Assembly (NCBI GenBank): GCA_964648765.1
Contig: CAZYLF010000002.1
Coordinates: 3,537 to 67,536 of the forward strand
Source of the DNA: an uncultured Candidatus Saccharibacteria bacterium
GTDB lineage: Bacteria > Patescibacteriota > Minisyncoccia > Phycocordibacterales > JACOZG01
Direction: 5' to 3'
Length of the DNA: 64,000 nt
Below are positions 20,932-40,983 of this stretch, piece by piece. A model generated the notes under the pieces. It was not told the origin of the DNA. It ran no database searches and was given only the letters and a program-made list of their open reading frames with translations. The position numbers and the translations under genes were made by a program. Position 1 is the first letter of the stretch; each line of letters begins with the position of its first letter.

Positions 20932-21111
20932 ATGCTATCTCCTAAAAATGTTACTCAAAGTTAACTATTTATAAATTAACACATTATGGCAAAAAAGCAA
21001 ATATTAATAAAACCATAGCAATTTTGAATTTTTTTTGTTACTATCACGCTTGATATTCTGAAAGATGAATATCATATTCCGGCGTGGCGCAGTGGTAGCG
21101 CAGTCGCCTGT

Positions 21112-21693
21112 GGACAGGTTCTTGGCTTACAGATGGTATACTCAACTGAGTTATGCCACGAAAAGAAACAAGAACCTATGCTGATCGAGCAGCCTATATG
21201 GTAAGGGCCGTTTCTTTAAGAAGAATTAAGTTAAGGAAAATGGCTCGAGAATACAAAGGTGGTAAATGTGAAATTTGCGGTTACTCTAGATGTGAGCGAG
21301 CGCTAAGTTTCCATCATCGAGATCCTAAAAAGAAATCCTTCGGGATATCAGACAGAGGTCTAACGTATTCTTGGCAGAGGATAAAAAACGAAATTGATAA
21401 GTGTGTCCTCCTCTGCGCTAATTGTCATATGGAATTGCACGACGGTTTTACGCAGCTTCCCGCTGTAAAGCGGGTTGAAAAATGAGGTGAATTCGGTGAA
21501 GTCCCATGTGGATAATACCGAGCCGAGCCCGCCAACATCCGAAAGGTTGTGGCGGGAAGGTGTAGAGACTATCTCGCAAGAGAGTACTTCTCGCTAAATA
21601 AAATTAACGAGACGGAAGCGCCTCACATCCCACTCACTGAAAAGTGAAGGATGATGATCTAGTCCATCCCTTTAAGCAATTAGAGGATAAATG
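21112..21693 (+). other. group I self-splicing intron (putative) carrying an HNH homing endonuclease ORF
   Basis: It lies between the tRNA halves. The 3'-terminal G, the R/S-like elements (ggtgtagagactatc … gatgatctagtcc) and an internal HNH ORF support the call. The exact P1 and boundaries are unverified. Confidence 0.55.
21153..21485 (+). CDS. HNH homing endonuclease (intron-encoded)
   Basis: CEICG…HHRDPKKK…CANCH zinc-finger/HNH motif; 110 aa. Confidence 0.7.
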   Translation: MPRKETRTYADRAAYMVRAVSLRRIKLRKMAREYKGGKCEICGYSRCERALSFHHRDPKKKSFGISDRGLTYSWQRIKNEIDKCVLLCANCHMELHDGFTQLPAVKRVEK

Positions 21694-21719
21694 TAAGCGA
21701 TTGGTCGTAGGTTCGAATC

Positions 21720-23390
21720 CTACCGCCGGAGCCTGACTGACAAAAGTGGCACATGATGCCACTTTTGTTGTATTTGGCCTGGCTTTTTAGAGGTTCGAGC
21801 GTGCTCTATTTCCTGCATAATAGCTTCTCGTGCTTTTATGAGGCTCAAAAAGAAAGAACTGTAGGAAAGCTGGATCTTTTTGTCGGAAATGGTGAGGTTC
21901 GAGCCAAGGCATGCGAGTATCGCTCTTTTGGTCTTTTCATCTCCATTTGCGTACCAAAGATGGGCGTAGCACGCAAAGTCAAAGGTTTGCTCTGATAGTT
22001 CTGCCCATTGTTCAACTGCCTTATTCTTAATCTTCAACTCGTCTTCAAGAAGGCCCTTCTTTCTGAGTAGGTCTGATTTTAAGGACTGATATTCCTGTTC
22101 GCCAATGATGGTTCGAGCCTTGTTGGATGGTGCGGTGAAGTTTAAGGTTAAAGACTGCAGCTGCTGCGTTACTTCTTCACACTCCTTGTGTTTGGTCCTT
22201 ATTGCAATTGAATCACTCTCGGCCTCAGTCTTGCGGACCTCATGAACATGGCGGACCGCCCAGTCACGATACTCTTCTGAAATTCTTATATCTTTAAGGA
22301 TCGCTCCAATCTGTAGATGTAGCAGTTTTACTTCTACATGCTTTTCAGTACAACCGGCATCATATCTCTTTTTGGTGCAGTTATAGTAGACATAATGATG
22401 GACGTTGCCGTTCTTGCATCGCTTTACTTTTGCTTGAGCTGTAATACTACAACCACAGGTGGCGCATTTCATAAGACCAGTAAAAGCAAACATTCGCTCC
22501 TCATGTCGTGGGCGTGGTTGATTGCTTCGGCCCATAATTTTTTGGACCCTATCAAATTCCTCTTTGGTAACCATTGGCTCATGCGCTCCTTTATTCCAAT
22601 TACCACTGTGTAGCGGAAACTCAAACCAACCGTAATAAAATGGATTCCCTAGGACTGCATAAATTGCTGATCGAGAAAGATGTTCGCCGCCAATGTTTCT
22701 ACGTGGGACCGTCCGGAGATTCAATTGCTTTCTTGAAATATTCCAAATCTGGGCCATTGAATAGTTGCCGGTAAGAGCAAGGTCAAAAAGTCTTCGGACC
22801 AAGGGAAACCTTTCAGGATCTCTTTCCAAAGTCTTATAACCCTTTTGCTTGTTTGGAGTATTGAGGTATCCGATTGGTGCGCCACTTGGCATCCAGCCAT
22901 CTCTCACTTTCTTTTGCAGACCTCGCTTCACATTCACTGATAGGTCTCGAATAAACTGGTTGGCCATTCCAAGTTCCACCTGCATCATGAGGACGTTGTC
23001 TGTCGGATAATAGGTTCGGCCGAAGGTGACGATCTGGGATATCGCACTCTGCTGCAACATCCAGCTTATCTGGCCACCATCGACAGGATTACGGGCTAGG
23101 CGGTCCAGTTTCCAGCACAGGATGCCATTGGCTTCGCCTTTATAGATTCTTTCAAGCATTGAGTTGAATACTTTCCTGCCTGGCTTCTTGGCTGATTGTG
23201 ATTCTTCAAGGATATCCAGGATTTGTAGACCTTGATCCTTTGCAATCTTCATAAGCTCGTCTTTCTGAGCATCTATGGACGCCGCTTGACGGTCTTCTGC
23301 CTCGCTGGATTTACGTGCGTAGAGGAAATATTTAATTGGTTGATTTGTCTGGTTCATTGTTTGTTTGTGTGTCAGATATGTGGGTCTCAT
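21720..23390 (-). CDS. large serine recombinase (resolvase/invertase N-domain + recombinase domain + zinc ribbon)
   Basis: N-terminal YARKSSEAEDRQ…SIDAQ catalytic Ser region, central recombinase domain and C-terminal CATCGC…C cluster. The stop overlaps the tRNA 3' exon by ~12 nt. Confidence 0.85.
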   Translation of the reverse strand: MRPTYLTHKQTMNQTNQPIKYFLYARKSSEAEDRQAASIDAQKDELMKIAKDQGLQILDILEESQSAKKPGRKVFNSMLERIYKGEANGILCWKLDRLARNPVDGGQISWMLQQSAISQIVTFGRTYYPTDNVLMMQVELGMANQFIRDLSVNVKRGLQKKVRDGWMPSGAPIGYLNTPNKQKGYKTLERDPERFPLVRRLFDLALTGNYSMAQIWNISRKQLNLRTVPRRNIGGEHLSRSAIYAVLGNPFYYGWFEFPLHSGNWNKGAHEPMVTKEEFDRVQKIMGRSNQPRPRHEERMFAFTGLMKCATCGCSITAQAKVKRCKNGNVHHYVYYNCTKKRYDAGCTEKHVEVKLLHLQIGAILKDIRISEEYRDWAVRHVHEVRKTEAESDSIAIRTKHKECEEVTQQLQSLTLNFTAPSNKARTIIGEQEYQSLKSDLLRKKGLLEDELKIKNKAVEQWAELSEQTFDFACYAHLWYANGDEKTKRAILACLGSNLTISDKKIQLSYSSFFLSLIKAREAIMQEIEHARTSKKPGQIQQKWHHVPLLSVRLRR

Positions 23391-24231
23391 TTACTGGCTC
23401 TGCCCATTTTTCGCCGTTTTTAAAGGGTGGTTCCGTAGTATCTGATTGGATACTACTGACTTCCCGTAAATTTCCCGTTATATCGGGAAAATTATCTCCG
23501 TTTTCTGTGGGTCTCACTACCTCACTTAAGGGTATGTTTCCTTCATAGGCTGTCTGGACGACATCATGCCCAGAAGGGTCTTGAATAGCAACTTCTAGTG
23601 GTAGCTGCCACTTATGCATTTTTCTTTTAAGAACATCTCCAATGCTAGTTAAAGAATTCGGGGATTTATTATTTTGGTTAGTTAGAGTATCTACGTTAAT
23701 ACTACGGTTCCTGCGTTTTCGGATACTACGGAGATGTATATCTGGATACTGCGCAACTGAATCTTTAAGTTTGAGACGCCCTTTAACATGGGCAATGCTT
23801 TTCCAAAAATCGACCGACTTAAAGTAGTACAGGTTCAGAGTTTTGAATCCACTCTTTGTCTGAACCACACCAAGGATGCTGCACTCAACAAGAAGCCGGA
23901 CCGCATTGGCAACATAGTTTCTATTCTTCTCCCCAGTTAAGTCTTGAATCGTGGTTAAGCTTGGCCAGGCGACTTGTGTCTGTGTATTTCCATGTTTCAA
24001 GATTGCGCAGTAAACAAGCGTGCAGAGCTTTGGCAACTTTTCCATATAGCCATGCTCTACAAATTCATTCTCCACGAAAAATCGAGTAGGCTTTCTCTTA
24101 CCGCGCAATAAGGACCGGTCAATCTGATTCTTCAGTTCCTCGATCTTCGCCTTGTGGTAGGCATGAGCTATCTCCACTTTCTTTTTCTTCGGGTCCAACC
24201 ACTCGAGGAAATACTTCTCGTTGTTGTTCAT
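23332..24231 (-). CDS. putative replication initiator / winged-helix DNA-binding protein
   Basis: wHTH-like segment LCTLVYCAILKHGNTQTQVAWPSLTTIQDLTGEKNRNYVANAVRLL; located next to the iteron-like array. The start may be the internal Met (24045). Confidence 0.45.
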   Translation of the reverse strand: MNNNEKYFLEWLDPKKKKVEIAHAYHKAKIEELKNQIDRSLLRGKRKPTRFFVENEFVEHGYMEKLPKLCTLVYCAILKHGNTQTQVAWPSLTTIQDLTGEKNRNYVANAVRLLVECSILGVVQTKSGFKTLNLYYFKSVDFWKSIAHVKGRLKLKDSVAQYPDIHLRSIRKRRNRSINVDTLTNQNNKSPNSLTSIGDVLKRKMHKWQLPLEVAIQDPSGHDVVQTAYEGNIPLSEVVRPTENGDNFPDITGNLREVSSIQSDTTEPPFKNGEKWAEPVNETHISDTQTNNEPDKSTN

Positions 24232-24388
24232 ATTCTGTAAGCCACACCTTTTTCACAGGCCGATAGACAAGATCAAAGACCGTCAGGAGTTTGGTAGCTT
24301 CTTCAACAAGAATTTCATCTGATGGAACCTCGCCATGTTCCTGGCGATAGATCTCTCGATATTCATCTAGTGCTTGTTTACTTAGCAT
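24119..24388 (-). CDS. small protein homologous to the 33511..33735 ORF (function unknown); C-terminal part overlaps next gene
   Basis: N-terminal 45 aa (DEYREIYRQEHGEVPSDEILVEEATKLLTVFDLVYRPVKK) align with ESFQVLYKTHFNKDISRAEAVEKGTKLLTLMKAVYKPMTKE. Confidence 0.45.
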   Translation of the reverse strand: MLSKQALDEYREIYRQEHGEVPSDEILVEEATKLLTVFDLVYRPVKKVWLTEYEQQREVFPRVVGPEEKESGDSSCLPQGEDRGTEESD

Positions 24389-24499
24389 GATGGTGTAGTG
24401 TTTGGTTAATAATTTCGACCTTTAGTCTCTTCCAGAAATAGAAAGAGCTGAGTCCCAGTTGCAAGTGACTCAGCTCTTTCCATGCAACTGGATGTTATG

Positions 24500-24860
24500 T
24501 ATCGTAGATCCTATTTCGTGCAAAATTGCGTGCATTACTTTGGGACCATCCGATTTGTCTATTCTGAGGCCCTATATTTTCCTAATTGCAGGAATTACTT
24601 CGGACCAAAGAACTATCTAATCCTAGTGCTTAAAAAAAGCAAAACATGGTGTATTACTTTTTATGGCTAGGATTATGGATTTATCCTAAGGTGTATAAAG
24701 TTCCTAACTGTAGGAATTACTCTTACCCCCCGAGGACTGTCTTAATCCTATTGTCTAAAAAGTGAAAAATGCGTTGCATTACTTTCATCTCCTCGGACAG
24801 TCATATCCTAAGAGCAAATGTAGTGCATTTCGGTGTGCATTACTTTTCCTTTAGGACCAG
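24500..24860. repeat. iteron-like array: 6 degenerate tandem repeats of ~61 bp each containing ATCCTA and TGC(G)TGCATTACTTT motifs
   Basis: kGCATTACTTy occurs at 24531, 24591, 24651, 24714, 24776 and 24836. ATCCTA occurs at ~24507, 24619, 24682, 24744 and 24805. The array lies in the intergenic region upstream of the rep-like/recombinase genes. Confidence 0.7.
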
Positions 24861-24975
24861 GTAAGTATGAGGTCCGAAGAAGTGCAAATTAGTGGGTATT
24901 GGCCGAGACAACGTAAAAAGCCCTGAATAGGCTTGGAAAAGCGTACACAGGGCTGTTTAGGGTCAAATTCGGTGT

Positions 24976-27900
24976 CTACAATATGTTCTCTCGCAATAAA
25001 TAAGCTATTACCGAAGCCTTTTCCAAGAGGAAATCCAAAATGATGAGAATCTGATTTTTTAACTGCGGATTAGTCTTGATCTTTTGCCGATTTTTAAGAA
25101 TGTAACTCCTCACAAGATTCTCCAGATAATAAACAGTGTTTACTTCTAGTTCCTTACGAGAAAGATCTGGATTCTTCTGTAGCAAATCACTAATCCAAGC
25201 AATACCCTCAGGAACAAAATTACTACCTATATCATTCAGAAGTTTTGTCAAAGCATACAAGACAGGGGTATTACCTCCCATATCTTCAGATACTTTCTTA
25301 AAGAAAGTCTTTTCTCTGTCTTTCAGAGAGCGCCATTCTTTCGCCCCTTTCTTCCATTGCAATGCTAGGAGGTATTTATGAACAACACTTTCAGCGTATC
25401 TAAGGTGATTTTCATCTGAGCATAGTTCCACAATCTTCGGATAGAAAACCTTCCAAACAGTCCAAAATTCTTCGTATTGATTTATAGAATCTTCCGCAAT
25501 AACAAACGCTTCTAGTACATCAGCCACAGCTTTCCTTCGCCTGAAATCACCAATGAGTTCCGTAAATGGCTTCACATACGTTTCAATTTCTTCTTTTGGA
25601 GAATAGAGGACAAAGTAAGCAAACTTATCTAAAAATCTATGTTCAAGCATATAGTCCAGACGCTCTTCCTTGTCCTCATTCTTAAATGCTTCTATGAGCA
25701 CAGGGCAAATTTCTCGTAAAAACTTCTTATGATTCTCGTCACTAGTTTTTAGCGGTACCAGCAGAAAAGCAGTTACGAGTATGCCGGGATCTATCTCTGC
25801 AACATTCTGTAGATCTGTATAAGAGAGTTGATTTGATAAGGCTTTATTGATCTGGGCTTTGCACTCTTTTTTAAAACGCTTTATGACAGAGATTGTAGAG
25901 AAGTCATATTTTTGTTTCTTTCGACTCTCTTCTCGAATAGACTCGCTTATTTCATCAAACTTAGGTTTAAGAAATAAGTACCCATGGAATATAGCTTTTG
26001 CATCCTCGGGACTTTCTGACCACAGATGTTGCAGAACTGCCGCGACCGCATAATCAGAGACTCGTTGGCTCATACCAATCGGATAGGAGTCGAAAAGAAC
26101 GAGAAGAAGTATCACTTTGATTTTTTCAGCATCCTTGGGAAACTTTTTGATCAATAGAGGAAGGACGTTAACTGATGCTTCTAATCCGTCGCCAACCTGA
26201 TATCGAAAACCTGCCTTCAAAGGCATAGATGCATAATCGAGTACTACTTTTTTACAAAACTCTGTATCCTTAGGAGACAGTTTGTCTGAGTAGTCTCGCA
26301 AAAGTACGGCACAGACATATGATGGAACTGACCGGTAGAATAATCTGAATTGACTCTCTTCGAGTTTATCTTTATCTAGCTGTTCCAGGATTGCTTTCGT
26401 TTCAGAAAGCGCGAGCACAGGATCATTTTCATATTGTGGGTAATTTTTTACTTCTTCCTTTCTTTCAAACTTATGACTCGACCATAATTGCAAAGGTGTA
26501 TATTTCAATGCTTCGGAACTTTTTGCCTGCGCTTCTTCACTGTGTTGTCTTAACTCTGGATCAATCTCAGGGTTGAAACTAATAAGAACTTGATCGTCTT
26601 TTTTCTCTGTAGTTATCTTCATTTTTCGACGATCCATTCTTGCCAAACAAAGTCTCCAGGTTTTATCACCATCAGTCTCTTTTGATTTGTTAGGTAGTTT
26701 TGCATAGTATTCATCAAGTATTTTCCATACCTCTTCCTGTCTAGTTTTAGACACTTCTTCCGCTTCGCCCTCATTCGCAAATAACTGATAGTTAAGTGCC
26801 TGATTTTCAAGTGAGTGATTACGATGCTTATCTTCACAAGTCTGCAGCCTCTCGTTCTTGAATAAGCCCATTGGATCATGGGCCATCGAGTAAGTGAACT
26901 TCGCACTACTCATATCGAGGTACATTCTTGAAGAATCAAAGAAAAAGAAATCCTTAGTTCTGAAAAGAATTTTTGCAATATTGAATAGCTTCGACGGTTC
27001 GGCAAGAACAGCGCTGACTACTACTGCAGTAATCGAGACGGATCGAGAATTTTTGATGAGATAAAGGCACCACTTCTCTACAACTTCAGGATCCCAGGTT
27101 TTTGCTATACCGAGCAACCAATGCTCCAGAGCCATATGAATAGATTCAAGTAATGGTGGAGCAACCTGCGTTCCCCGATATAAATTCCAAATTCTGTGAC
27201 AGGCATATTGTTTGATAGTTTGACCCGAAGCATCTACTACGACATCTATTTCTTCAGCTTCGTACTGCGCGAATTCTGATTTGGCAAAATACCCGATCGA
27301 CTTATTAGTAAATGCTAAAATAAAGTTGACCGTTTCCTGAGGGGCGACTTGCAACATCGTTCCTATTGGTGTCTGAAAAGCACTAGCTGGGTAATACTCA
27401 AGATGGCCCTCCGTGAGATCAAAGTATTGCTCTATGCCATTCCTGTAATCAGAATATGAATGCCTATCTTCACGAGGTTTATAAAACCAAAATAGATTTG
27501 CAAGTTTTATGATTTCTTTCGGAAGATGACGTGCAACTTCGGTGCTATTGATAATTGAAGAAAGCATCACTTTTACCAATTCGTAATATCGAGTTCGATG
27601 GGATGTATCCTGCGCGGCAATGACTCCATCTACAATTTCAGTCAACTCTTCTTTTATTTCCCCTGAGCCACTAAGAATAGTTCTGATGAGTTGCTCTTTG
27701 GAGCTATCACGAGAACTGAAGTAAAAATCATTCTTGGCTGTAAGGGTGTTGTAATAAAACAATGCAATCTGACTTGCTTCCTTAGTAGTTTCTCCTTGCT
27801 TATTACTTCGGTTCCAATCATCCAGTACTGGGAGGATGACATGCATATACATAAGTTGAAGCCTGTCCTTATGTTTGTTGACGAAAGCAATGGCAGAAGA

Positions 27901-29814
27901 CCACCCACTACCTTTAGGAGTCGTAAATATAGTTTCTAGTGTAAGTGCATTTGCTCGAGTTAAACCCAGACGATTCAAGAAATTGTCATCTACAGTCTTG
28001 CAGGCAATTCTCAGCAAGAAGAGAATTCTGTGTAGCAGTCTTTGTTCGATCTTGTAATTAACATTAACCACCCTAATCACTTTGGAAGAGCTTTCGACAG
28101 AAACGACTCGTTCAGGTTCCTTAAGTAATTCTTCTTCAAAAAGATCAAAGAATACTTTTGAATAATCTGAGAGGAGTACTGAGACTAAAACCTCATCTTT
28201 CCAATAATTCTCAACGGAACCATCTTGCACCGTAAATGCAATCAACTTCTTTGCTTTTTCATCACTTGCAAAAAGTTTGTCGGATAGCCAATTTCTAAAG
28301 GCACGTCGAATTGGAAGCGAACTACCTATTTCAGTGTAAAAATTATCGAAGCTGGTAGCAGTGCTAAAGGCCCTCTCGATAATCATATCTAAAGCCCACT
28401 CTTCATATACATCGTGTGTTATGAAGTATCCGCCAGCGTTTGAATCAAATTTGATAATCTCGCTCGCTTCTAGTTTCTGAAGCGCTTCATGATCAGATTC
28501 TCCAGTCCTAACGAAGAATCCTCCCTCATTTGCACGTTGCTTAGCGATCTTCAAAAAAGACTCTTCTCTTCGTCTGTGTAAATTATTTGATTGAAAACCT
28601 GAATTCTGGATCTGCTTCTTCCAAATAATTTCGCGAAAATCAGTATAGCTAATATCTGCCTTCGTCTCAGTATAATCCTGTAAATACTCACTCAGATAAA
28701 GTGGCGTTGAAAGAAGGCTTGCAAGTCTGTCATTTTTAGGAAGCTTGAATTTATGTGTCCTTGCGATTAATTCAATTTCTTCACTGGAAAGATGTGGAAT
28801 ATTCAGGGATGCAAAATTCGCTCCGTAGAATTCTTTTAGTTGGAAACGGAGATCATCAAGATAGTTATGTCGCACTGTAAAAATAACTTTCCAACCATTT
28901 GTGACTAACTCAGACAGAAACATTCTGAACACATCTTGGTCTTCGATTTCTGAAAGTCTTTCAGCCGAGTCAAAGACTACATACTTCTCATTGATATCTT
29001 TATGCTCAGCAATAAATTCTGCTGCAGTGATTTCTCCATAATCCTTGAAAAGTTGGTTTATATGGGAAGCACTTTTAAATTGTGTAACCTTAAAGACGAA
29101 AAAGGGTGTGGAATCCTTTACTGTTTCGTAAAGATCTTTTATTACCGCAGTTTTACCTACCCCTGCACCACCACTTAAAACCACAAGCGGAAAAGTTTGA
29201 GCGGTATCTTTAACACCACCCACAACAGAAGAACGGTCTAGTTTGATTGCACTTTTCCCAAAAGAGATCTCTGAACGGATAGGCTGAAGTACTGAATCAG
29301 TATATTTCTGGAGTTCAATAATGGAGTCGATGATGCCCTTCTTAAGACTAAAGAAATGTTGCGCGATACTAAAGTTCTCTTCGCAAACAAATGGCGATTC
29401 AAAGTAGCTTCCTGTCCGCCATTCGATCTCGACACCTTTTGACTTAGCGTGAGCTTCTATGTCCTTTTTGTATTGAGGATCTGTTTTCTTTTTGTCCTGT
29501 CCAAATTCTTGATTCGTATAGAAAATAATTTTATTTAGCTTCGGATGTCTCTCTTTGCCTTTATCGATGGATTCTTTAAAGTCGGCAGTATGTTGAGAGA
29601 GCGCTGTCGTATAAAATTTCGACTGCCAACCTACAACTAAGCCATTCTGTTCAACAGGATTGGTTTCGATACCAGCATGATTCTTGAACCTAAAAACACC
29701 AATATTTTTATTAAACTCCTTGCAAAATAAAAGATAACAAAGTCGTTCAAAAGCCCCTTGCTTATTACTACTAAATTTCGCACCGAAGTTGTCCCAATTC
29801 ACTTCCTGAATCAT
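24976..29814 (-). CDS. 1612-aa STAND-type P-loop NTPase (Avs-like architecture): putative N-terminal PD-(D/E)xK-like nuclease, central NTPase, long C-terminal helical repeat region
   Basis: Walker A VVLSGGAGVGKTAV, Walker B KYVVFDSAE, sensor VIFTVRHNY (hhhTxR) and then ~1250 aa of helical repeats. The first ~130 aa (…GIETNP…VVGWQSKF…) are a possible E…QxK nuclease-like core, which is speculative. Confidence 0.75.
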   Translation of the reverse strand: MIQEVNWDNFGAKFSSNKQGAFERLCYLLFCKEFNKNIGVFRFKNHAGIETNPVEQNGLVVGWQSKFYTTALSQHTADFKESIDKGKERHPKLNKIIFYTNQEFGQDKKKTDPQYKKDIEAHAKSKGVEIEWRTGSYFESPFVCEENFSIAQHFFSLKKGIIDSIIELQKYTDSVLQPIRSEISFGKSAIKLDRSSVVGGVKDTAQTFPLVVLSGGAGVGKTAVIKDLYETVKDSTPFFVFKVTQFKSASHINQLFKDYGEITAAEFIAEHKDINEKYVVFDSAERLSEIEDQDVFRMFLSELVTNGWKVIFTVRHNYLDDLRFQLKEFYGANFASLNIPHLSSEEIELIARTHKFKLPKNDRLASLLSTPLYLSEYLQDYTETKADISYTDFREIIWKKQIQNSGFQSNNLHRRREESFLKIAKQRANEGGFFVRTGESDHEALQKLEASEIIKFDSNAGGYFITHDVYEEWALDMIIERAFSTATSFDNFYTEIGSSLPIRRAFRNWLSDKLFASDEKAKKLIAFTVQDGSVENYWKDEVLVSVLLSDYSKVFFDLFEEELLKEPERVVSVESSSKVIRVVNVNYKIEQRLLHRILFLLRIACKTVDDNFLNRLGLTRANALTLETIFTTPKGSGWSSAIAFVNKHKDRLQLMYMHVILPVLDDWNRSNKQGETTKEASQIALFYYNTLTAKNDFYFSSRDSSKEQLIRTILSGSGEIKEELTEIVDGVIAAQDTSHRTRYYELVKVMLSSIINSTEVARHLPKEIIKLANLFWFYKPREDRHSYSDYRNGIEQYFDLTEGHLEYYPASAFQTPIGTMLQVAPQETVNFILAFTNKSIGYFAKSEFAQYEAEEIDVVVDASGQTIKQYACHRIWNLYRGTQVAPPLLESIHMALEHWLLGIAKTWDPEVVEKWCLYLIKNSRSVSITAVVVSAVLAEPSKLFNIAKILFRTKDFFFFDSSRMYLDMSSAKFTYSMAHDPMGLFKNERLQTCEDKHRNHSLENQALNYQLFANEGEAEEVSKTRQEEVWKILDEYYAKLPNKSKETDGDKTWRLCLARMDRRKMKITTEKKDDQVLISFNPEIDPELRQHSEEAQAKSSEALKYTPLQLWSSHKFERKEEVKNYPQYENDPVLALSETKAILEQLDKDKLEESQFRLFYRSVPSYVCAVLLRDYSDKLSPKDTEFCKKVVLDYASMPLKAGFRYQVGDGLEASVNVLPLLIKKFPKDAEKIKVILLLVLFDSYPIGMSQRVSDYAVAAVLQHLWSESPEDAKAIFHGYLFLKPKFDEISESIREESRKKQKYDFSTISVIKRFKKECKAQINKALSNQLSYTDLQNVAEIDPGILVTAFLLVPLKTSDENHKKFLREICPVLIEAFKNEDKEERLDYMLEHRFLDKFAYFVLYSPKEEIETYVKPFTELIGDFRRRKAVADVLEAFVIAEDSINQYEEFWTVWKVFYPKIVELCSDENHLRYAESVVHKYLLALQWKKGAKEWRSLKDREKTFFKKVSEDMGGNTPVLYALTKLLNDIGSNFVPEGIAWISDLLQKNPDLSRKELEVNTVYYLENLVRSYILKNRQKIKTNPQLKNQILIILDFLLEKASVIAYLLRENIL

Positions 29815-29819
29815 CGTAT

Positions 29820-30983
29820 TTACCGATTTCCTTTTGCTCGATTGTGTGTCTTACACAACATTTCGCAATTTTTAATATCGGTCTTTCCACCCTTACTCCA
29901 GGCCGAGACATGGTCGGCATCCATATCTGCTAGACTCCAAATCTTATCTTTGTTCGCATCGTGACCGATCGCACAATGTGAACAGTTAGAAGTACCTTTC
30001 TTCTTTGCGGCAGCAGTTTGAGCTTCATAGACTGAACGTTTGGTTGAGTCCTCAAATACTCGAACTTCAAGTAGTTTTGTTTCGACCTCTCCTCCTAAAA
30101 CATACTCAAAAATACCTTTGCGATTTTTTACAAAACCGTCGGCATAGAGTTTCTGAACCGTAGCAGATACTTTAGCGGGATTATATTTTTTCTTATGATA
30201 CGTTTGGTAGAGTCTATTCCACTCAAGGCCTTTCATCTCGCTTTCAACTTCAGTAAATGTAGTTGAAATCCAATCAATAACAATTTCGAAATGCTTTTTT
30301 AGCTCGGTAATGTTTTTGTCGTTGCGATGCTTGCTCATGTAACTATCGATATCACCACCAGAAACCCAATCTAAGGCTCGTTCCAAATATGCCTGGCGTT
30401 TAATATCACCTGCAATGTACGCACTCCATTTCTGGACGTTAGCGTTCTGACTGTTACTAAATTCTTCACGCGCAAGTGTGACAAATGGTCCAGAATATAC
30501 CGCATTAAGAATCTCTTGTTCGGTTAAAGGAACTCCCGCAATATTGATAGTCTTAAACCAGTCTTTGATCTCCGGCTCATCACCCTCACATACATATACC
30601 AACAACTTAGTATTCATGATTTGCTCTCGTTGGCTCTCAGCCATGCCGCTGTAGTACTGTTCATGGCCATTCCTATCTTTGACAGCAAACTTTCCTGTCA
30701 CAAAGCGGCCAATACTTGTGATACGCTGCTGACCATCTAACACCTCAAACTTATCTTTGCCAGCTTGATTAAAATAAATTAAACCTATTGGGTAACCTTT
30801 CAAAATTGAGTCAATCACAGCAACGTCACGCTTACCATCAGCATAAATATAATTACGTTGATACTCTGGTTGAATAGTTAATTTTCCAGATAGACCAAAC
30901 AACCCCTTTCCTTCGAGTTCGTTGTAGACGAAGCCGTCGCAAACTTCTCTAATTGTAATGTCATTTTTTAAGGTTGTTTTCAT
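29820..30983 (-). CDS. DUF262 (ParB-like nuclease/NTPase) – HNH endonuclease fusion (GmrSD/SspE-like architecture)
   Basis: [19 protein letters not shown] motif; C-terminal CSHCAIGH…[12 protein letters not shown]…[17 protein letters not shown] motif. Confidence 0.8.
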
Positions 30984-30985
30984 AA

Positions 30986-32107
30986 TTATTTTTTCTTATG
31001 TTTGATAAATAACTTTTTAAATGTTTCTTTGCCATTTATATAGGTACTACGTCCGTAAACACCTTCAGGATCCTGACCAATTCCTCGGTTTGCACCAAGT
31101 ATCTCAAACTGCTCAGAAGAATATTTGTCCATAAAACTTATCGGCACGCCAATAACACCACCATAGTCGCTTGGGATCGCATCTACATACGAAACATCAA
31201 TGGCATCGTAATTATCATATTTATCATATGATGTTTTACCCTGCATTTTTTTGTTGAACTTTAAGTTATCTTCCATACTCATTAAGCTGAGTGGTTGATG
31301 TCTTCGCCCATGATCCAAATTAGTGTACCAACGCACACCCTGGACTCTCGTGATATAAACTTTTTTACCTTGTTCATTTACCTTTATTTCACGTACCTGG
31401 TCTAGATTAGCTATCGCCTCAGGTATTTCGTAAAACATAGCTCCACCGTTCACTTTTGCATTATTGCCAAACCATACTTTGTTTGCCTTAATCATAGGAA
31501 AAACTTCTTTGTATGTAATCGCGTTCATATTTCCAATGATCAAAAATTGCTTTTCGTAATCAAAAAGTTGCGTAATGTATTCACGAAATAAACTAAATGG
31601 AGGATTGGTGACTACAATGTCAGACTGTTTGAGTAACTCAACACATTCATCACTTCTAAAATCACCATCGCCCTCAAGCGGAGACCACTCGTTATTTTTG
31701 TTAGCTCTAAGTTGCTTAGCAATATCTTCTAGTGTAAAAGAACCATCGCCATCAACATCACCAACCTCGTTAATAATAAATTTGTTAGCAACAACTTTTG
31801 GTCGCCCTTTGACTGGTTTGAGGGTAACGTCATCGCCGAATAGTGTTATTTGAGTGTTCGCAACTGGAGAGGGTTTGTAACTAGTTGTAATAAGTCTTTT
31901 TAGTCCTAAACGATTAAAATTCAAGACGAAGTAACGAAAAAAGTTACTTTCAAACGGGTCATCACAGTTACTGTAAATTACCTTACCTTTAAAAGTATTC
32001 GGGTTATATTCAAGATATGATTCCACCTCTTTTTGAATATCAGAAAATTGAGTATAAAACTCATCATTTTTTGCTTTTTTTGCGTCTCTTAGATTCTTGT
32101 TTGCCAT
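30986..32107 (-). CDS. N6-adenine DNA methyltransferase (gamma-class; DEFYT motif X, NPPF motif IV)
   Basis: NDEFYTQF and [11 protein letters not shown] motifs. The start is set at MANKN (32107), which avoids overlap with the Fic gene; the ORF track extends to 32206. Confidence 0.75.
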
Positions 32108-32111
32108 AAAT

Positions 32112-33014
32112 TTATTTCTGTTTGCCAGGGCTATAAACAAACCCTTCTGCAATCTTCCAAACACCTTTCTCTCGGAAAGCTGGGATGTTTTGACGACGAG
32201 CGGCATTAGTTAGCGCAGATGCTGATGCGTGGCTTGTCTTTGCATAATCAGAAAGAGTAACGATCTTCTCGCCCTTAAGATAAGTAATTCTTTTGTGGAG
32301 TGATTCGGTAAGAGAAAGCGCGAGGATCTTTTCCATCTTCTTTGCAGTCTTCTTGTCTCGATATTCAGCAAAGGTGCTGTAATAATCCTTTTTTTCTTTG
32401 TCTCGAATGATAATTCCAGGGAAACCAAGTCTCTGGAGTTGGTAATTTATAAGTACACGACCAATACGACCATTGCCATCACAGAATGGGTGAATAGTTT
32501 CAAATTCAAGGTGGAATTTTGCAATCCTGTCTACAAAAAATGACTTAACATCAGCAACATACTCTGACAAAAGTGCATCAATCATTTTTTCTACTTGTTC
32601 AGGGGCCGGAGCAACGTGTGTACCAACTCTCACATATTCACCGATCTTTCTGAAACGACCGGCAATATCATCTTTAATCCCGCCAATAAGCATTTGGTGG
32701 AGGAATAAAATAACTTCTCTGTTTACTTCAGTTTCTTGAGATTTATTTCTAATGTAAGCAACAACTCGAGCAAGATTCTTAGCCTCGAACACTTCTCGGA
32801 CCGAAACTTCACGAGCTACTTCCATTTCCAAAAGAATCTTTTCCGTCTCCTGGAGAGTAAGGGTTGAGTTTTCGATGGCGTTTGAGTTATAAACCGCCTC
32901 GGCAACCTCCGCCTCATCTACCATAACCAAAAGTGACTCTTTTCCTTTTTTAAGAGCTTCGTATTCGGTCTTGAGGTTTTGGATTCTATTTACGAGGGGT
33001 TTTGTAATTGCCAT
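32112..33014 (-). CDS. Fic/Doc family protein (AMPylase-type Fic motif)
   Basis: Canonical Fic motif HPFCDGNGRIGR. Confidence 0.85.
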   Translation of the reverse strand: MAITKPLVNRIQNLKTEYEALKKGKESLLVMVDEAEVAEAVYNSNAIENSTLTLQETEKILLEMEVAREVSVREVFEAKNLARVVAYIRNKSQETEVNREVILFLHQMLIGGIKDDIAGRFRKIGEYVRVGTHVAPAPEQVEKMIDALLSEYVADVKSFFVDRIAKFHLEFETIHPFCDGNGRIGRVLINYQLQRLGFPGIIIRDKEKKDYYSTFAEYRDKKTAKKMEKILALSLTESLHKRITYLKGEKIVTLSDYAKTSHASASALTNAARRQNIPAFREKGVWKIAEGFVYSPGKQK

Positions 33015-40697: not shown

Positions 40698-40983
40698 TCC
40701 TTACCCCTGCCCCAGAGATCACATCAAAGGGGCTTTTTTCTTTAGTTGACGCAGATTAAGAATTTGCTAAGATGTTGAGGTAACGTTCTTTGACAACAGA
40801 ATATATATCAAGAGTGAGCTGAGGGAATGGCCCGATGAAGCTCCGACAACCTGCCCCATAATCTGTGGGCAAGGTGCCAAATCCAACCCCTGCGGGAAGA
40901 TATCTATCTGTTTAAAGTAATTCAATAGAAACAACACCGCACTCGCGGTGTTGTTTCGTGTTTATCTTTAATAAGGAGAGAAA

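Follow-up and report, generated by a model that had tools for sequence, protein, structure and literature searches.

An IA-type group I intron with an HNH gene, predicted to self-splice, in the tRNA-Asn(GUU) gene of a Patescibacteria genome

Introns of the Asn.4Ug type, which interrupt tRNA-Asn at position 35/36, were already catalogued with tFind in the preprint of Williams (2020; bioRxiv 10.1101/2020.01.27.920355). More recently, Nakagawa et al. (mSystems 2026, PMC13011429; preprint 10.1101/2025.07.03.662931) described subgroup IA introns at the same site of the Patescibacteria tRNA-Asn(GUU), with 25 of the 28 introns at 35/36 assigned to IA and a PF01844 HNH gene in four of 15 tRNA-Asn introns. 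In that work, IC introns made up 81% of tRNA introns, none of those of Patescibacteria being IC, and a homologous Patescibacteria intron at 35/36 of tRNA-Asn self-spliced in vitro, in an experiment that included an omega-G-to-C control and sequencing of the product (PMC13011429). The initial annotation of the locus described here held that tRNA-Asn was not among the hosts of group I introns of which it was aware, a view that has to be corrected, because this host is a documented one (10.1101/2020.01.27.920355; PMC13011429). The arrangement itself is already known: its type has been described in Patescibacteria and a close relative has been shown to splice. In this regard, our copy shares with the introns of Nakagawa et al. 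the host tRNA, the site, the U-1 and omega-G boundaries, the phylum and an IA-type core, and differs in coming from a draft genome, on an NCBI contig of 222,593 bp, outside their 95 complete genomes. The main text of PMC13011429 mentions neither free-standing gene copies nor an internal guide sequence, and the word 'phage' occurs there in a reference title only; as far as that main text goes, the location and overlap of an ORF in the P1 loop, free-standing copies and phage relatives seem not to be covered. Here we analyse a window of 64 kb (the whole stretch of DNA under study), in which a Paceibacterota-like bacterium (Patescibacteria/CPR) very probably has, inside its tRNA-Asn(GUU) gene, a self-splicing subgroup IA intron with an HNH gene, working as proposed in the last section.

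Anatomy of the split gene and its intron

Removal of the 582 nt at positions 21112-21693 joins 21078-21111 and 21694-21731 into a canonical tRNA-Asn(GUU), all on the forward strand, as are the features below unless indicated. Exon 1 (21078-21111; TCCGGCGTGGCGCAGTGGTAGCGCAGTCGCCTGT) comprises the 5' strand of the acceptor, the D arm, the 5' strand of the anticodon stem and the loop nucleotides C32, U33, G34 and U35. Exon 2 (21694-21731; TAAGCGATTGGTCGTAGGTTCGAATCCTACCGCCGGAG) continues with U36, A37 and A38, the 3' strand of the anticodon stem, the variable loop, the T arm, the 3' strand of the acceptor and G73, after which CCA is only incompletely encoded. The insertion site lies in the anticodon loop between positions 35 and 36, directly after a U, and the last intron base is a G (omega-G, 21693). 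ARAGORN in its default mode made no tRNA call at the locus in a run over the whole window, and an Rfam scan of the same window at gathering thresholds missed the intron. A feature that escapes standard annotation in this way would leave the genome seemingly without tRNA-Asn, and the estimated completeness of Patescibacteria genomes is distorted as a result. With introns allowed, ARAGORN reported a tRNA-Asn(gtt) whose intron, i(35,582), follows position 35 and measures 582 nt, and on the joined exons it returned a cloverleaf of about 72-74 nt with U1-A72, G73 and the loop CUGUUAA. The initial annotation had given these same exon limits, gap and terminal G and the same canonical tRNA-Asn with its U1-A72, G73 and loop, and had proposed an intron-aware tRNA search as a check; all of this was borne out.

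The same split tRNA-Asn was found in 68 of 80 homologous loci, as was an exon 1 with the same CTGT end, and both the U at the 5' boundary (U-1) and the omega-G preceding TAA were kept in every one of the 68 related split genes. Compared with intronless tRNA-Asn genes of related genomes, 54-57 of 72 tRNA positions are identical. Upstream, a consensus scan picked out a promoter-like site, TTGATA-17-CATATT (21050-21078), ending on the first tRNA base; the scan found three such sites versus 2.4 expected, which is not above chance, so that position alone makes this one suggestive.

The 582 nt between tRNA positions 35 and 36 (21112-21693) form a group I intron of the IA-like subgroup, as delimited by ARAGORN, RF00028 and covariation. 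In a local scan, the Rfam model RF00028 (Intron_gpI) scored 54 bits against a gathering cut-off of 50 (E 8e-13), and of the 19 homologous loci with an intron that were tested, 16 reached 67-91 bits. Relative to shuffles, the fold of the ribozyme part has z = -5.0, a value that, together with the Rfam score and the 68 of 80 loci sharing the split tRNA, indicates that the match did not arise by chance. Covariation was followed in an alignment of 62 ribozyme parts from homologous copies, for which RNAalifold gave compensatory changes in 30 of 39 pairs. For the structure composed of the named helices, 84.3% of the cells were paired, compared with 69.4% in shuffles and 34-47% when the structure was slid along the alignment; double-change cells numbered 665 against 250 in shuffles, and none of 500 shuffles equalled the real alignment on any measure.

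Helices P2 to P8, including P7.1 and P7.2, are backed by compensatory changes in the 62 copies. The P2 hairpin CCCGC/GCGGG (21459-21474) shows them in all five of its pairs, and the catalytic core P3-P9 (21484-21686), traced from the Rfam alignment, RNAalifold and the named structure, is made of P3 (21484-89/21619-24), P4 (21493-97/21517-21), P5 (21501-04/21510-13), P6 (21522-24/21559-61), P6a (21528-36/21546-56), P7 (GACUA 21567-21571/UAGUC 21660-21664), P7.1 (21572-75/21580-83), P7.2 (21587-93/21608-15), P8 (21626-30/21649-53) and P9 (21669-75/21680-86). The same core helices appear in the single-sequence centroid fold. With P3-P8 present and P3 and P7 forming a pseudoknot, the core is that of a group I intron, and P7.1 and P7.2, which follow the 5' strand of P7 and precede the 3' strand of P3, place it by its helices in subgroup IA. 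P7 is invariant and 99.7% paired among the 62 copies, P9 is poorly aligned (60% paired), and inspection for P10 gave no convincing pairing. The initial annotation had proposed a group I intron, had pointed to the elements gagacta and ctagtcc, which turn out to be the two strands of P7, and had suggested a covariance-model search, allowing that the call would fall if no group I structure could be folded. The RF00028 score above the cut-off and the covarying helices agree with that proposal. Both the anatomy of the gene and the conservation and covariation of its fold are established here.

The 5' strand of P1 is CUGU (21108-21111), formed by anticodon-loop nucleotides, which pairs with GCAG (21452-21455) as 3' strand and internal guide sequence (IGS). 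Both strands of this 4-bp helix are invariant in the 62 aligned copies, a fact that removes any covariation support, so the pairing is read from the sequence, with U21111 and G21452 as the putative U.G wobble at the 5' splice site. In ORF-less homologues, 7-23 nt separate the IGS from this splice site, compared with about 325-349 nt in ORF-bearing homologues, the IGS position following the presence or absence of the ORF, and on the basis of the ORF-less homologues the GCAG downstream of the ORF was taken as the IGS. Candidate P1 helices built on ACAG motifs close to the intron's 5' end were discarded, as either the loop was too small or the splice-site U stood opposite an A.

The HNH reading frame and its relatives

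The loop of P1 (L1) contains an intact ORF of 110 aa (21153-21485), identified through Pfam HNH, phrog_2255 and its homologues; the initial annotation had likewise noted a 110-aa HNH ORF in the insert. The ORF is more than 'carried' by the intron: besides being located in the P1 loop, it overlaps the IGS, all of P2 and the beginning of P3. Its last 11 codons cover the IGS, P2 and J2/3; its stop codon, TGA, overlaps P3 at that helix's first two bases, and the GCAG of the IGS is at the same time the Gln codon region of a conserved TQLP motif (ACGCAGCUUCC). The match to Pfam PF01844 (HNH) is borderline, with 21.5 bits for a threshold of 21.4, the match to the phrog_2255 HNH endonuclease has an E of 8e-30, and there are 432 homologues of the protein with identities of 65-80%. 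None of the residues C39, C42, C88, C91, H54, H55, N90, H92 and H96 varies among 29 sequences compared, and the predicted protein has the HNH motif and zinc-binding cysteines. Against 66 homologues, pN is 0.19 and pS 0.84, with synonymous differences saturated, and the protein, catalytic residues included, is under strong purifying selection. Looked up as an exact sequence, the protein of 110 aa gave no match; public gene calls begin at Met16, which yields a 95-aa protein. A profile search of PDB sequences returned none that was significant, the best being a maturase endonuclease domain from a group II intron (E 0.028), and the best fold matches of Foldseek were all HNH nucleases, although weak (E of at least 0.05).

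An inverted repeat, UGGUAUA...UAUGCCA (21134-21158; 91% of cells paired in 64 sequences), encloses the AUG start codon (21153-21155) and includes TATACT, a -10-like hexamer. It is common to intronic and free-standing copies of the HNH gene. The covariation of this hairpin is weak (8 double-change cells versus 2.9 expected), which makes its role speculative.

The same architecture occurs in 63 of 80 related public loci, and both ORF-less and ORF-bearing introns occur. In three related genomes (L085, L086 and L087), intronless tRNA-Asn genes adjoin the same recombinase element as here, which establishes for the intron the presence/absence polymorphism that is looked for in a homing element.

Two other placements of the HNH gene were seen. 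In 12 of the 80 loci it is free-standing near a tRNA-Asn with an ORF-less intron at the same site, about 40-130 nt apart, and phage tRNA arrays contain viral relatives, with identities of up to 62%, in between their tRNA genes. A large serine recombinase (21720-23390, reverse strand; Pfam Resolvase, Recombinase and Zn_ribbon_recom), a gene separate from the intron, overlaps with its 3' end the final 12 nt of tRNA-Asn and is the first gene of a serine-recombinase defence island adjoining the 3' end of the tRNA. Downstream of the tRNA, a terminator-like hairpin with a T-run (21742-21772), recognised by its sequence, received no call in a simple terminator scan; it is part of the conserved end of the recombinase element and also flanks the intronless tRNA-Asn genes of L085 and L087. 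The far end of the island was looked for in the form of a repeat or a further piece of tRNA-Asn, with no convincing result. The free-standing HNH copies, the phage relatives in tRNA arrays and the island at the tRNA 3' end are possibly unreported.

Tentatively, the HNH family could be arranged as a natural series of three states that are otherwise mostly observed apart, a reading to which we give somewhat less than even chances: free-standing in phage tRNA arrays, free-standing beside an ORF-less tRNA-Asn intron (collaborative homing), and captured in the P1 loop, with its frame fused to the ribozyme and the invariant TQLP motif dictated by IGS and P2. If the series were true, mobilisation in trans could be frequent for those Patescibacteria tRNA-Asn introns that seem immobile and without an ORF, and the published inference of limited horizontal transfer would be contradicted.

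Alternative explanations

The splice boundary is formally ambiguous: with both limits moved 2 nt upstream (CT|...|TGTAA), the gene could be a tRNA-Thr(UGU) split at 33/34, its exon 1 ending in ...CU, its intron running from GUGG... to ...AAA and its exon 2 beginning with UGUAA. As identity elements, U1-A72 and G73 are typical for tRNA-Asn of bacteria, but not for tRNA-Thr, and the tRNA body, having both, would be Asn. In about 30 homologous loci, where the sequence context is the same, ARAGORN calls a tRNA-Thr(tgt), i(33,...), and tFind gives tRNA-Thr for several published cases (PMC13011429, Table 1), Asn-versus-Thr miscalls of both programs being likewise reported in that paper. The threonine intron, however, would end in A instead of G, against the G directly before TAA kept in 68 of 68 copies; intronless relatives have a contiguous ...CUGUUAA... 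that is called Asn; and the sequenced ligated product of a homologue placed the excision at 35/36 (PMC13011429). Altogether, we regard a tRNA-Thr as extremely improbable. The His, Thr and Glu calls of ARAGORN in homologues were set aside as boundary artefacts of one Asn gene.

A gene that reads as tRNA-Asn might still be a dead one, disrupted by a decayed insertion that does not splice, with tRNA-Asn supplied by another gene; the Rfam score only 4 bits above the cut-off, the failure of the default scan to find the intron and the fact that the genome was inspected as a 64-kb window would fit such a case. Yet all core helices are intact in this copy, the exons form a perfect cloverleaf, the HNH ORF is uninterrupted with every invariant residue present, the architecture is kept in 63 species-level genomes with compensatory changes, and intron-bearing and intronless copies of one anticodon rarely coexist in a genome (PMC13011429), all of which makes a dead gene very unlikely. 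Less remote, but still unlikely, is an intron that splices while its HNH protein no longer mobilises it, being an inactive passenger or retained for another role, for example as an aid to RNA folding or in action against competing elements. Homing requires intronless targets, meetings with which may be rare in these bacteria, and horizontal transfer of Patescibacteria tRNA introns has been argued to be limited (Nakagawa et al., PMC13011429). The purifying selection on the protein, which extends to its catalytic residues, argues against an idle passenger; the presence of the intron differs among related genomes, and an HNH gene free-standing beside ORF-less introns and in phage tRNA arrays is what would be expected of an active selfish nuclease. 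As for a maturase, a homologous ORF-less intron splices without protein (PMC13011429), so that no such role is needed.

Proposed mechanism and known systems

For a self-splicing intron in tRNA-Asn(GUU) with a homing nuclease, we infer the splicing of this copy, the activity and target of the nuclease and the regulation as follows. The gene would be transcribed as a precursor of roughly 656 nt, in which C32-U35 would pair with GCAG (21452-21455) to form P1, whose U35.G wobble would mark the splice site. The core P3-P9, comprising the P3/P7 pseudoknot as well as the IA-specific helices P7.1 and P7.2, would bind free guanosine, which would attack after U21111; omega-G21693 would next occupy the guanosine site and the exons would be ligated, restoring the CUGUUAA loop. 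The 110-aa HNH nuclease of the P1 loop is predicted to be most likely a homing endonuclease that would cleave or nick tRNA-Asn alleles that have no intron, close to the insertion site, repair of the cut allele copying in the intron with the HNH gene. Since the 3' end of the ORF also serves as IGS, as P2 and as the first part of P3, any one transcript should be either translated or folded into the ribozyme, but not both, and the conserved start-codon hairpin may enforce this choice.

Among other known systems, the cyanobacterial tRNA-fMet(CAU) intron (cited in PMC3984707 and also counted in PMC13011429), which encodes the PD-(D/E)XK endonuclease I-Ssp6803I, differs from the present intron in its site (33/34), endonuclease family and IC-type core. 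The IA introns of phages (T4 td/I-TevI, T4 nrdB/I-TevIII, SPO1 I-HmuI and the Twort ribozyme) likewise combine P7.1 and P7.2 with an endonuclease ORF placed in a peripheral loop, I-TevIII of T4 nrdB being an HNH, but their hosts are protein-coding genes. The ORFs of these phage introns are known from P6, P8 or P9 loops, not from the P1 loop, and their endonucleases are larger, with separate DNA-binding domains. A possible parallel is the expression of the ORF apart from splicing ('Genes within genes', Gott et al. 1988, as cited in PMC2330249). Collaborative or trans homing, as in cyanophage F-CphI/psbA and T4 mobE/I-TevIII (PMC3984707, section 12; PMC2790892), resembles the 12 of 80 related loci with a free-standing gene; this layout is a feature of the relatives, whereas in the window the HNH gene is inside the intron. 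The free-standing endonucleases of phage tRNA clusters (T5 F-TflI/II/IV and T4 SegB; PMC2330249) are placed like the viral HNH relatives, although SegB belongs to the GIY-YIG family, unlike the HNH protein described here. In this line, the locus adds one further copy to an already described and partly experimentally validated family, and the sharing of sequence between ORF, guide, P2 and P3, together with the free-standing and phage-array copies, offers a testable system for the assembly of mobile introns.

A split tRNA-Asn gene

The observation at 21078-21731 is confirmed by inspection of the locus, where the sequence described in the initial annotation was found as stated. Exon 1 (21078-21111) and exon 2 (21694-21731) join into a 74-nt cloverleaf with U1-A72, G73 and the loop CUGUUAA, which is the canonical tRNA-Asn that had been proposed, and ARAGORN with introns allowed placed a 582-nt intron (21112-21693) behind position 35 of a tRNA-Asn(gtt). 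Moreover, a local Rfam scan of 21000-21800 (801 nt) matched the group I intron model Intron_gpI (RF00028) at 21360-21686 with 54 bits (E 8e-13; gathering score 50 bits). The interpretation of the feature as a tRNA-Asn gene carrying a group I intron with an HNH ORF is therefore supported. Default ARAGORN over the window missed the split gene and found a tRNA-Ala as the sole tRNA, and the whole-window (64 kb) Rfam gathering scan matched only this tRNA-Ala and a SAM riboswitch, the intron being hidden from that scan by speed filters and by a 340-nt insertion in P1. Since the tRNA is invisible without intron-aware settings, routine annotation would list tRNA-Asn as missing. The SAM (S-box) riboswitch lies at 40802-40906 (66.6 bits), upstream of plus-strand ORFs.

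Scanning a single genome from each species gave 80 related loci, with titles nearly all from Patescibacteria/CPR lineages and a single contig labelled Burkholderiales (L033). For the HNH protein, 432 homologues were found (roughly 65-80% identity), and the source names given for them are all Patescibacteria (Nomurabacteria, Kaiserbacteria, Paceibacterota). The ARAGORN labels of the interrupted tRNAs vary among Asn, Thr, His and Glu. A uniform search found a common architecture in 68 of the 80 loci, with exon 1 ending in CTGT, the intron ending in G, exon 2 starting with TAA and a U1-A72/G73 body; as these loci share one Asn architecture, the Thr, His and Glu labels are boundary artefacts. A Thr(UGU) reading would place both boundaries 2 nt upstream, turning CUGU/UAA into CU/UGUAA, and the intron would then end in A. 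In intronless relatives, CUGUUAA is uninterrupted.

The belief that tRNA-Asn was not a known host of group I introns is out of date. Williams (bioRxiv 2020, 10.1101/2020.01.27.920355) raised the number of group I intron types known from bacterial tRNAs to 21, including an 'Asn.4Ug' type cited by Nakagawa et al. (mSystems 2026, PMC13011429; preprint July 2025). Among 95 complete Patescibacteria genomes, the latter authors reported group I introns at position 35/36 of 15 tRNA-Asn(GUU) genes, classed 25 of 28 35/36 introns as IA, described PF01844 HNH genes in four tRNA-Asn introns and documented Asn/Thr miscalls (PMC13011429). One of their tRNA-Asn introns self-spliced precisely in vitro, with a control in which omega-G, the last intron nucleotide, was changed to C (PMC13011429). 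Homology to this experimentally spliced relative strongly suggests that the window copy would also splice. The window intron is one more member of an already published kind. A term search of the main text of PMC13011429 found no mention of free-standing HNH genes or of the internal guide sequence (IGS), and 'phage' occurred there in a reference title only.

Ribozyme fold and the overlapping HNH gene

In homologous introns of 216-317 nt lacking the ORF, exon CUGU pairs with a GCAG located 7-23 nt into the intron to form P1, followed by P2, GAAAA and P3. In ORF-bearing copies, a GCAGC-P2-GAAAA-P3 block occurs ~325-349 nt into the intron, where it directly follows the conserved HNH gene end. For the window, P1 comprises C32-U35 (21108-21111) and GCAG (21452-21455), with a U21111.G21452 wobble at the splice site, whereas P2 is formed by 21459-63/21470-74 and the 5′ strand of P3 by 21484-89. 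When 62 distinct ribozyme parts were aligned, 30 of the 39 pairs in the RNAalifold consensus showed compensatory changes. The named structure, including the P3/P7 pseudoknot, has 84.3% of cells paired (vs 69.4% for shuffles and 34-47% for slid partners) and 665 double-change cells (250 expected), and none of 500 shuffles matched it in any measure. Covariation is found in P2, P3, P4, P5, P6a, P7.1, P7.2 and P8, with P7 and P6 essentially invariant and P9 poorly aligned among the 62 copies. P7.1 and P7.2 are two hairpins between the P7 5′ strand and the P3 3′ strand, such a pair being the hallmark of subgroup IA. A group I fold can also be drawn for the window copy alone, as its single-sequence centroid yields the same helices (z = -5.0), and RF00028 scores reach 67-91 bits in 16 of the 19 intron-bearing homologous loci tested. 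The 216-nt intron of two relatives (L051/L053) shares the P1, P2, P7-3′ and P9 ends and has a divergent middle, aligns poorly with the remaining 61 copies and scores under the gathering threshold of RF00028; a second intron lineage may occupy this tRNA-Asn site.

The announced HNH ORF occupies 21153-21485 (110 aa) and fills the P1 loop, with a Pfam HNH match just above threshold (21.5 vs 21.4 bits) and a match to PHROG 2255 'HNH endonuclease' (E 8e-30). Four cysteines (C39, C42, C88, C91) are invariant, together with H54, H55, N90, H92 and H96. A comparison with 66 homologues gave 0.19 non-synonymous differences per site and saturated synonymous sites (0.84), so the protein is under purifying selection. 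The best PDB matches of its AlphaFold model (pLDDT 76) are all HNH-type nucleases (Cap5, Gme HNH nicking enzyme, T4 endonuclease VII and Cas9 HNH), although weak (E at least 0.05), and we infer nuclease activity for the window protein.

The last 11 HNH codons (within 21450-21485) coincide with the IGS (the P1 3′ strand), P2 and J2/3 and extend two bases into P3, so that the TGA stop codon (21483-85) overlaps this helix. In 61 of 62 intronic copies, nCGCAGCUyCCn, a stretch comprising the IGS and the opening bases of P2, codes for the invariant C-terminal TQLP motif, whereas GCAG is found at this site in none of 12 free-standing copies, which read TKIP and similar; the protein motif is therefore dictated by the RNA.

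A conserved inverted repeat, UGGUAUA/UAUGCCA (21134-21158), holds the HNH start codon (21153-21155) inside its stem. It is 91% paired in 64 sequences, with weak covariation, is common to intronic and free-standing copies, and its 5′ arm contains a -10-like hexamer (TATACT). For T4 intron ORFs, masking of the start codon in the precursor RNA has been proposed. Speculatively, the repeat could mask translation on a read-through precursor RNA, be the gene's own promoter, or both.

A recombinase island at the tRNA

The final 12 nt of the tRNA-Asn are shared with a minus-strand gene (21720-23390) for a large serine recombinase, whose product groups at ≥90% identity with proteins bearing the names Candidatus Pacebacteria/Paceibacterota; the window is therefore assigned to a Paceibacterota-like bacterium. 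A protein encoded nearby recurs with 100% identity on an NCBI contig of 222,593 bp and in Logan assemblies of SRR14271335. The recombinase gene heads a minus-strand block (21720-33014) that resembles a defence island and further encodes HTH_36, a 1612-aa NACHT-like protein, GmrSD+HNH, an EcoRI-like methyltransferase and Fic. In three other Paceibacterota contigs (L085, L086, L087), this recombinase (≥90% identity) and a junction of identical sequence adjoin intronless tRNA-Asn genes, where the cargo (HsdR, ResIII) differs from that in the window. A mobile island therefore also uses the tRNA-Asn as its insertion point, seemingly as its attachment site, and related genomes are polymorphic for the intron. 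A search for the far end of the island did not find it.

Free-standing and phage copies of the HNH gene

The HNH gene lies inside the intron in 63 of the 80 loci and is free-standing in 12 (L038, L044, L050, L051, L052, L053, L054, L066, L076, L078, L079, L080), a count that leaves out five loci, mostly at contig ends. The free-standing genes are ~40-130 nt from a tRNA-Asn with an ORF-less intron (216-331 nt) at the same 35/36 site. In L078, part of the tRNA-Asn 3′ end is repeated in inverted orientation (GCTCCGGCGGCAGGATTCGAA, 2350-2380) in the interval that separates the intron-bearing tRNA-Asn from the free-standing gene; this copy may be the scar of a rearrangement or repair event.

Viral relatives of the protein (IMG/VR contigs L088-L167; of special note, L088-L092 and L095:1125-1725) show 34-62% identity and are almost always encoded inside phage tRNA gene arrays. 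In five viral contigs, the HNH gene is ~90 nt downstream of an intronless tRNA-Asn, and on one 436-kb phage contig a 227-nt group I intron (RF00028, 76.6 bits) interrupts tRNA-Asn at 35/36, with a free-standing HNH copy after it. The free-standing, intronic and phage genes may form a series, which is the part of moderate interest. T5 and T4 offer known examples of free-standing endonucleases within phage tRNA clusters (PMC2330249), and the layout of the 12 relatives, with a free-standing HNH gene adjoining an ORF-less tRNA-Asn intron, is similar to the arrangement of free-standing endonuclease and ORF-less intron termed collaborative homing (PMC3984707).
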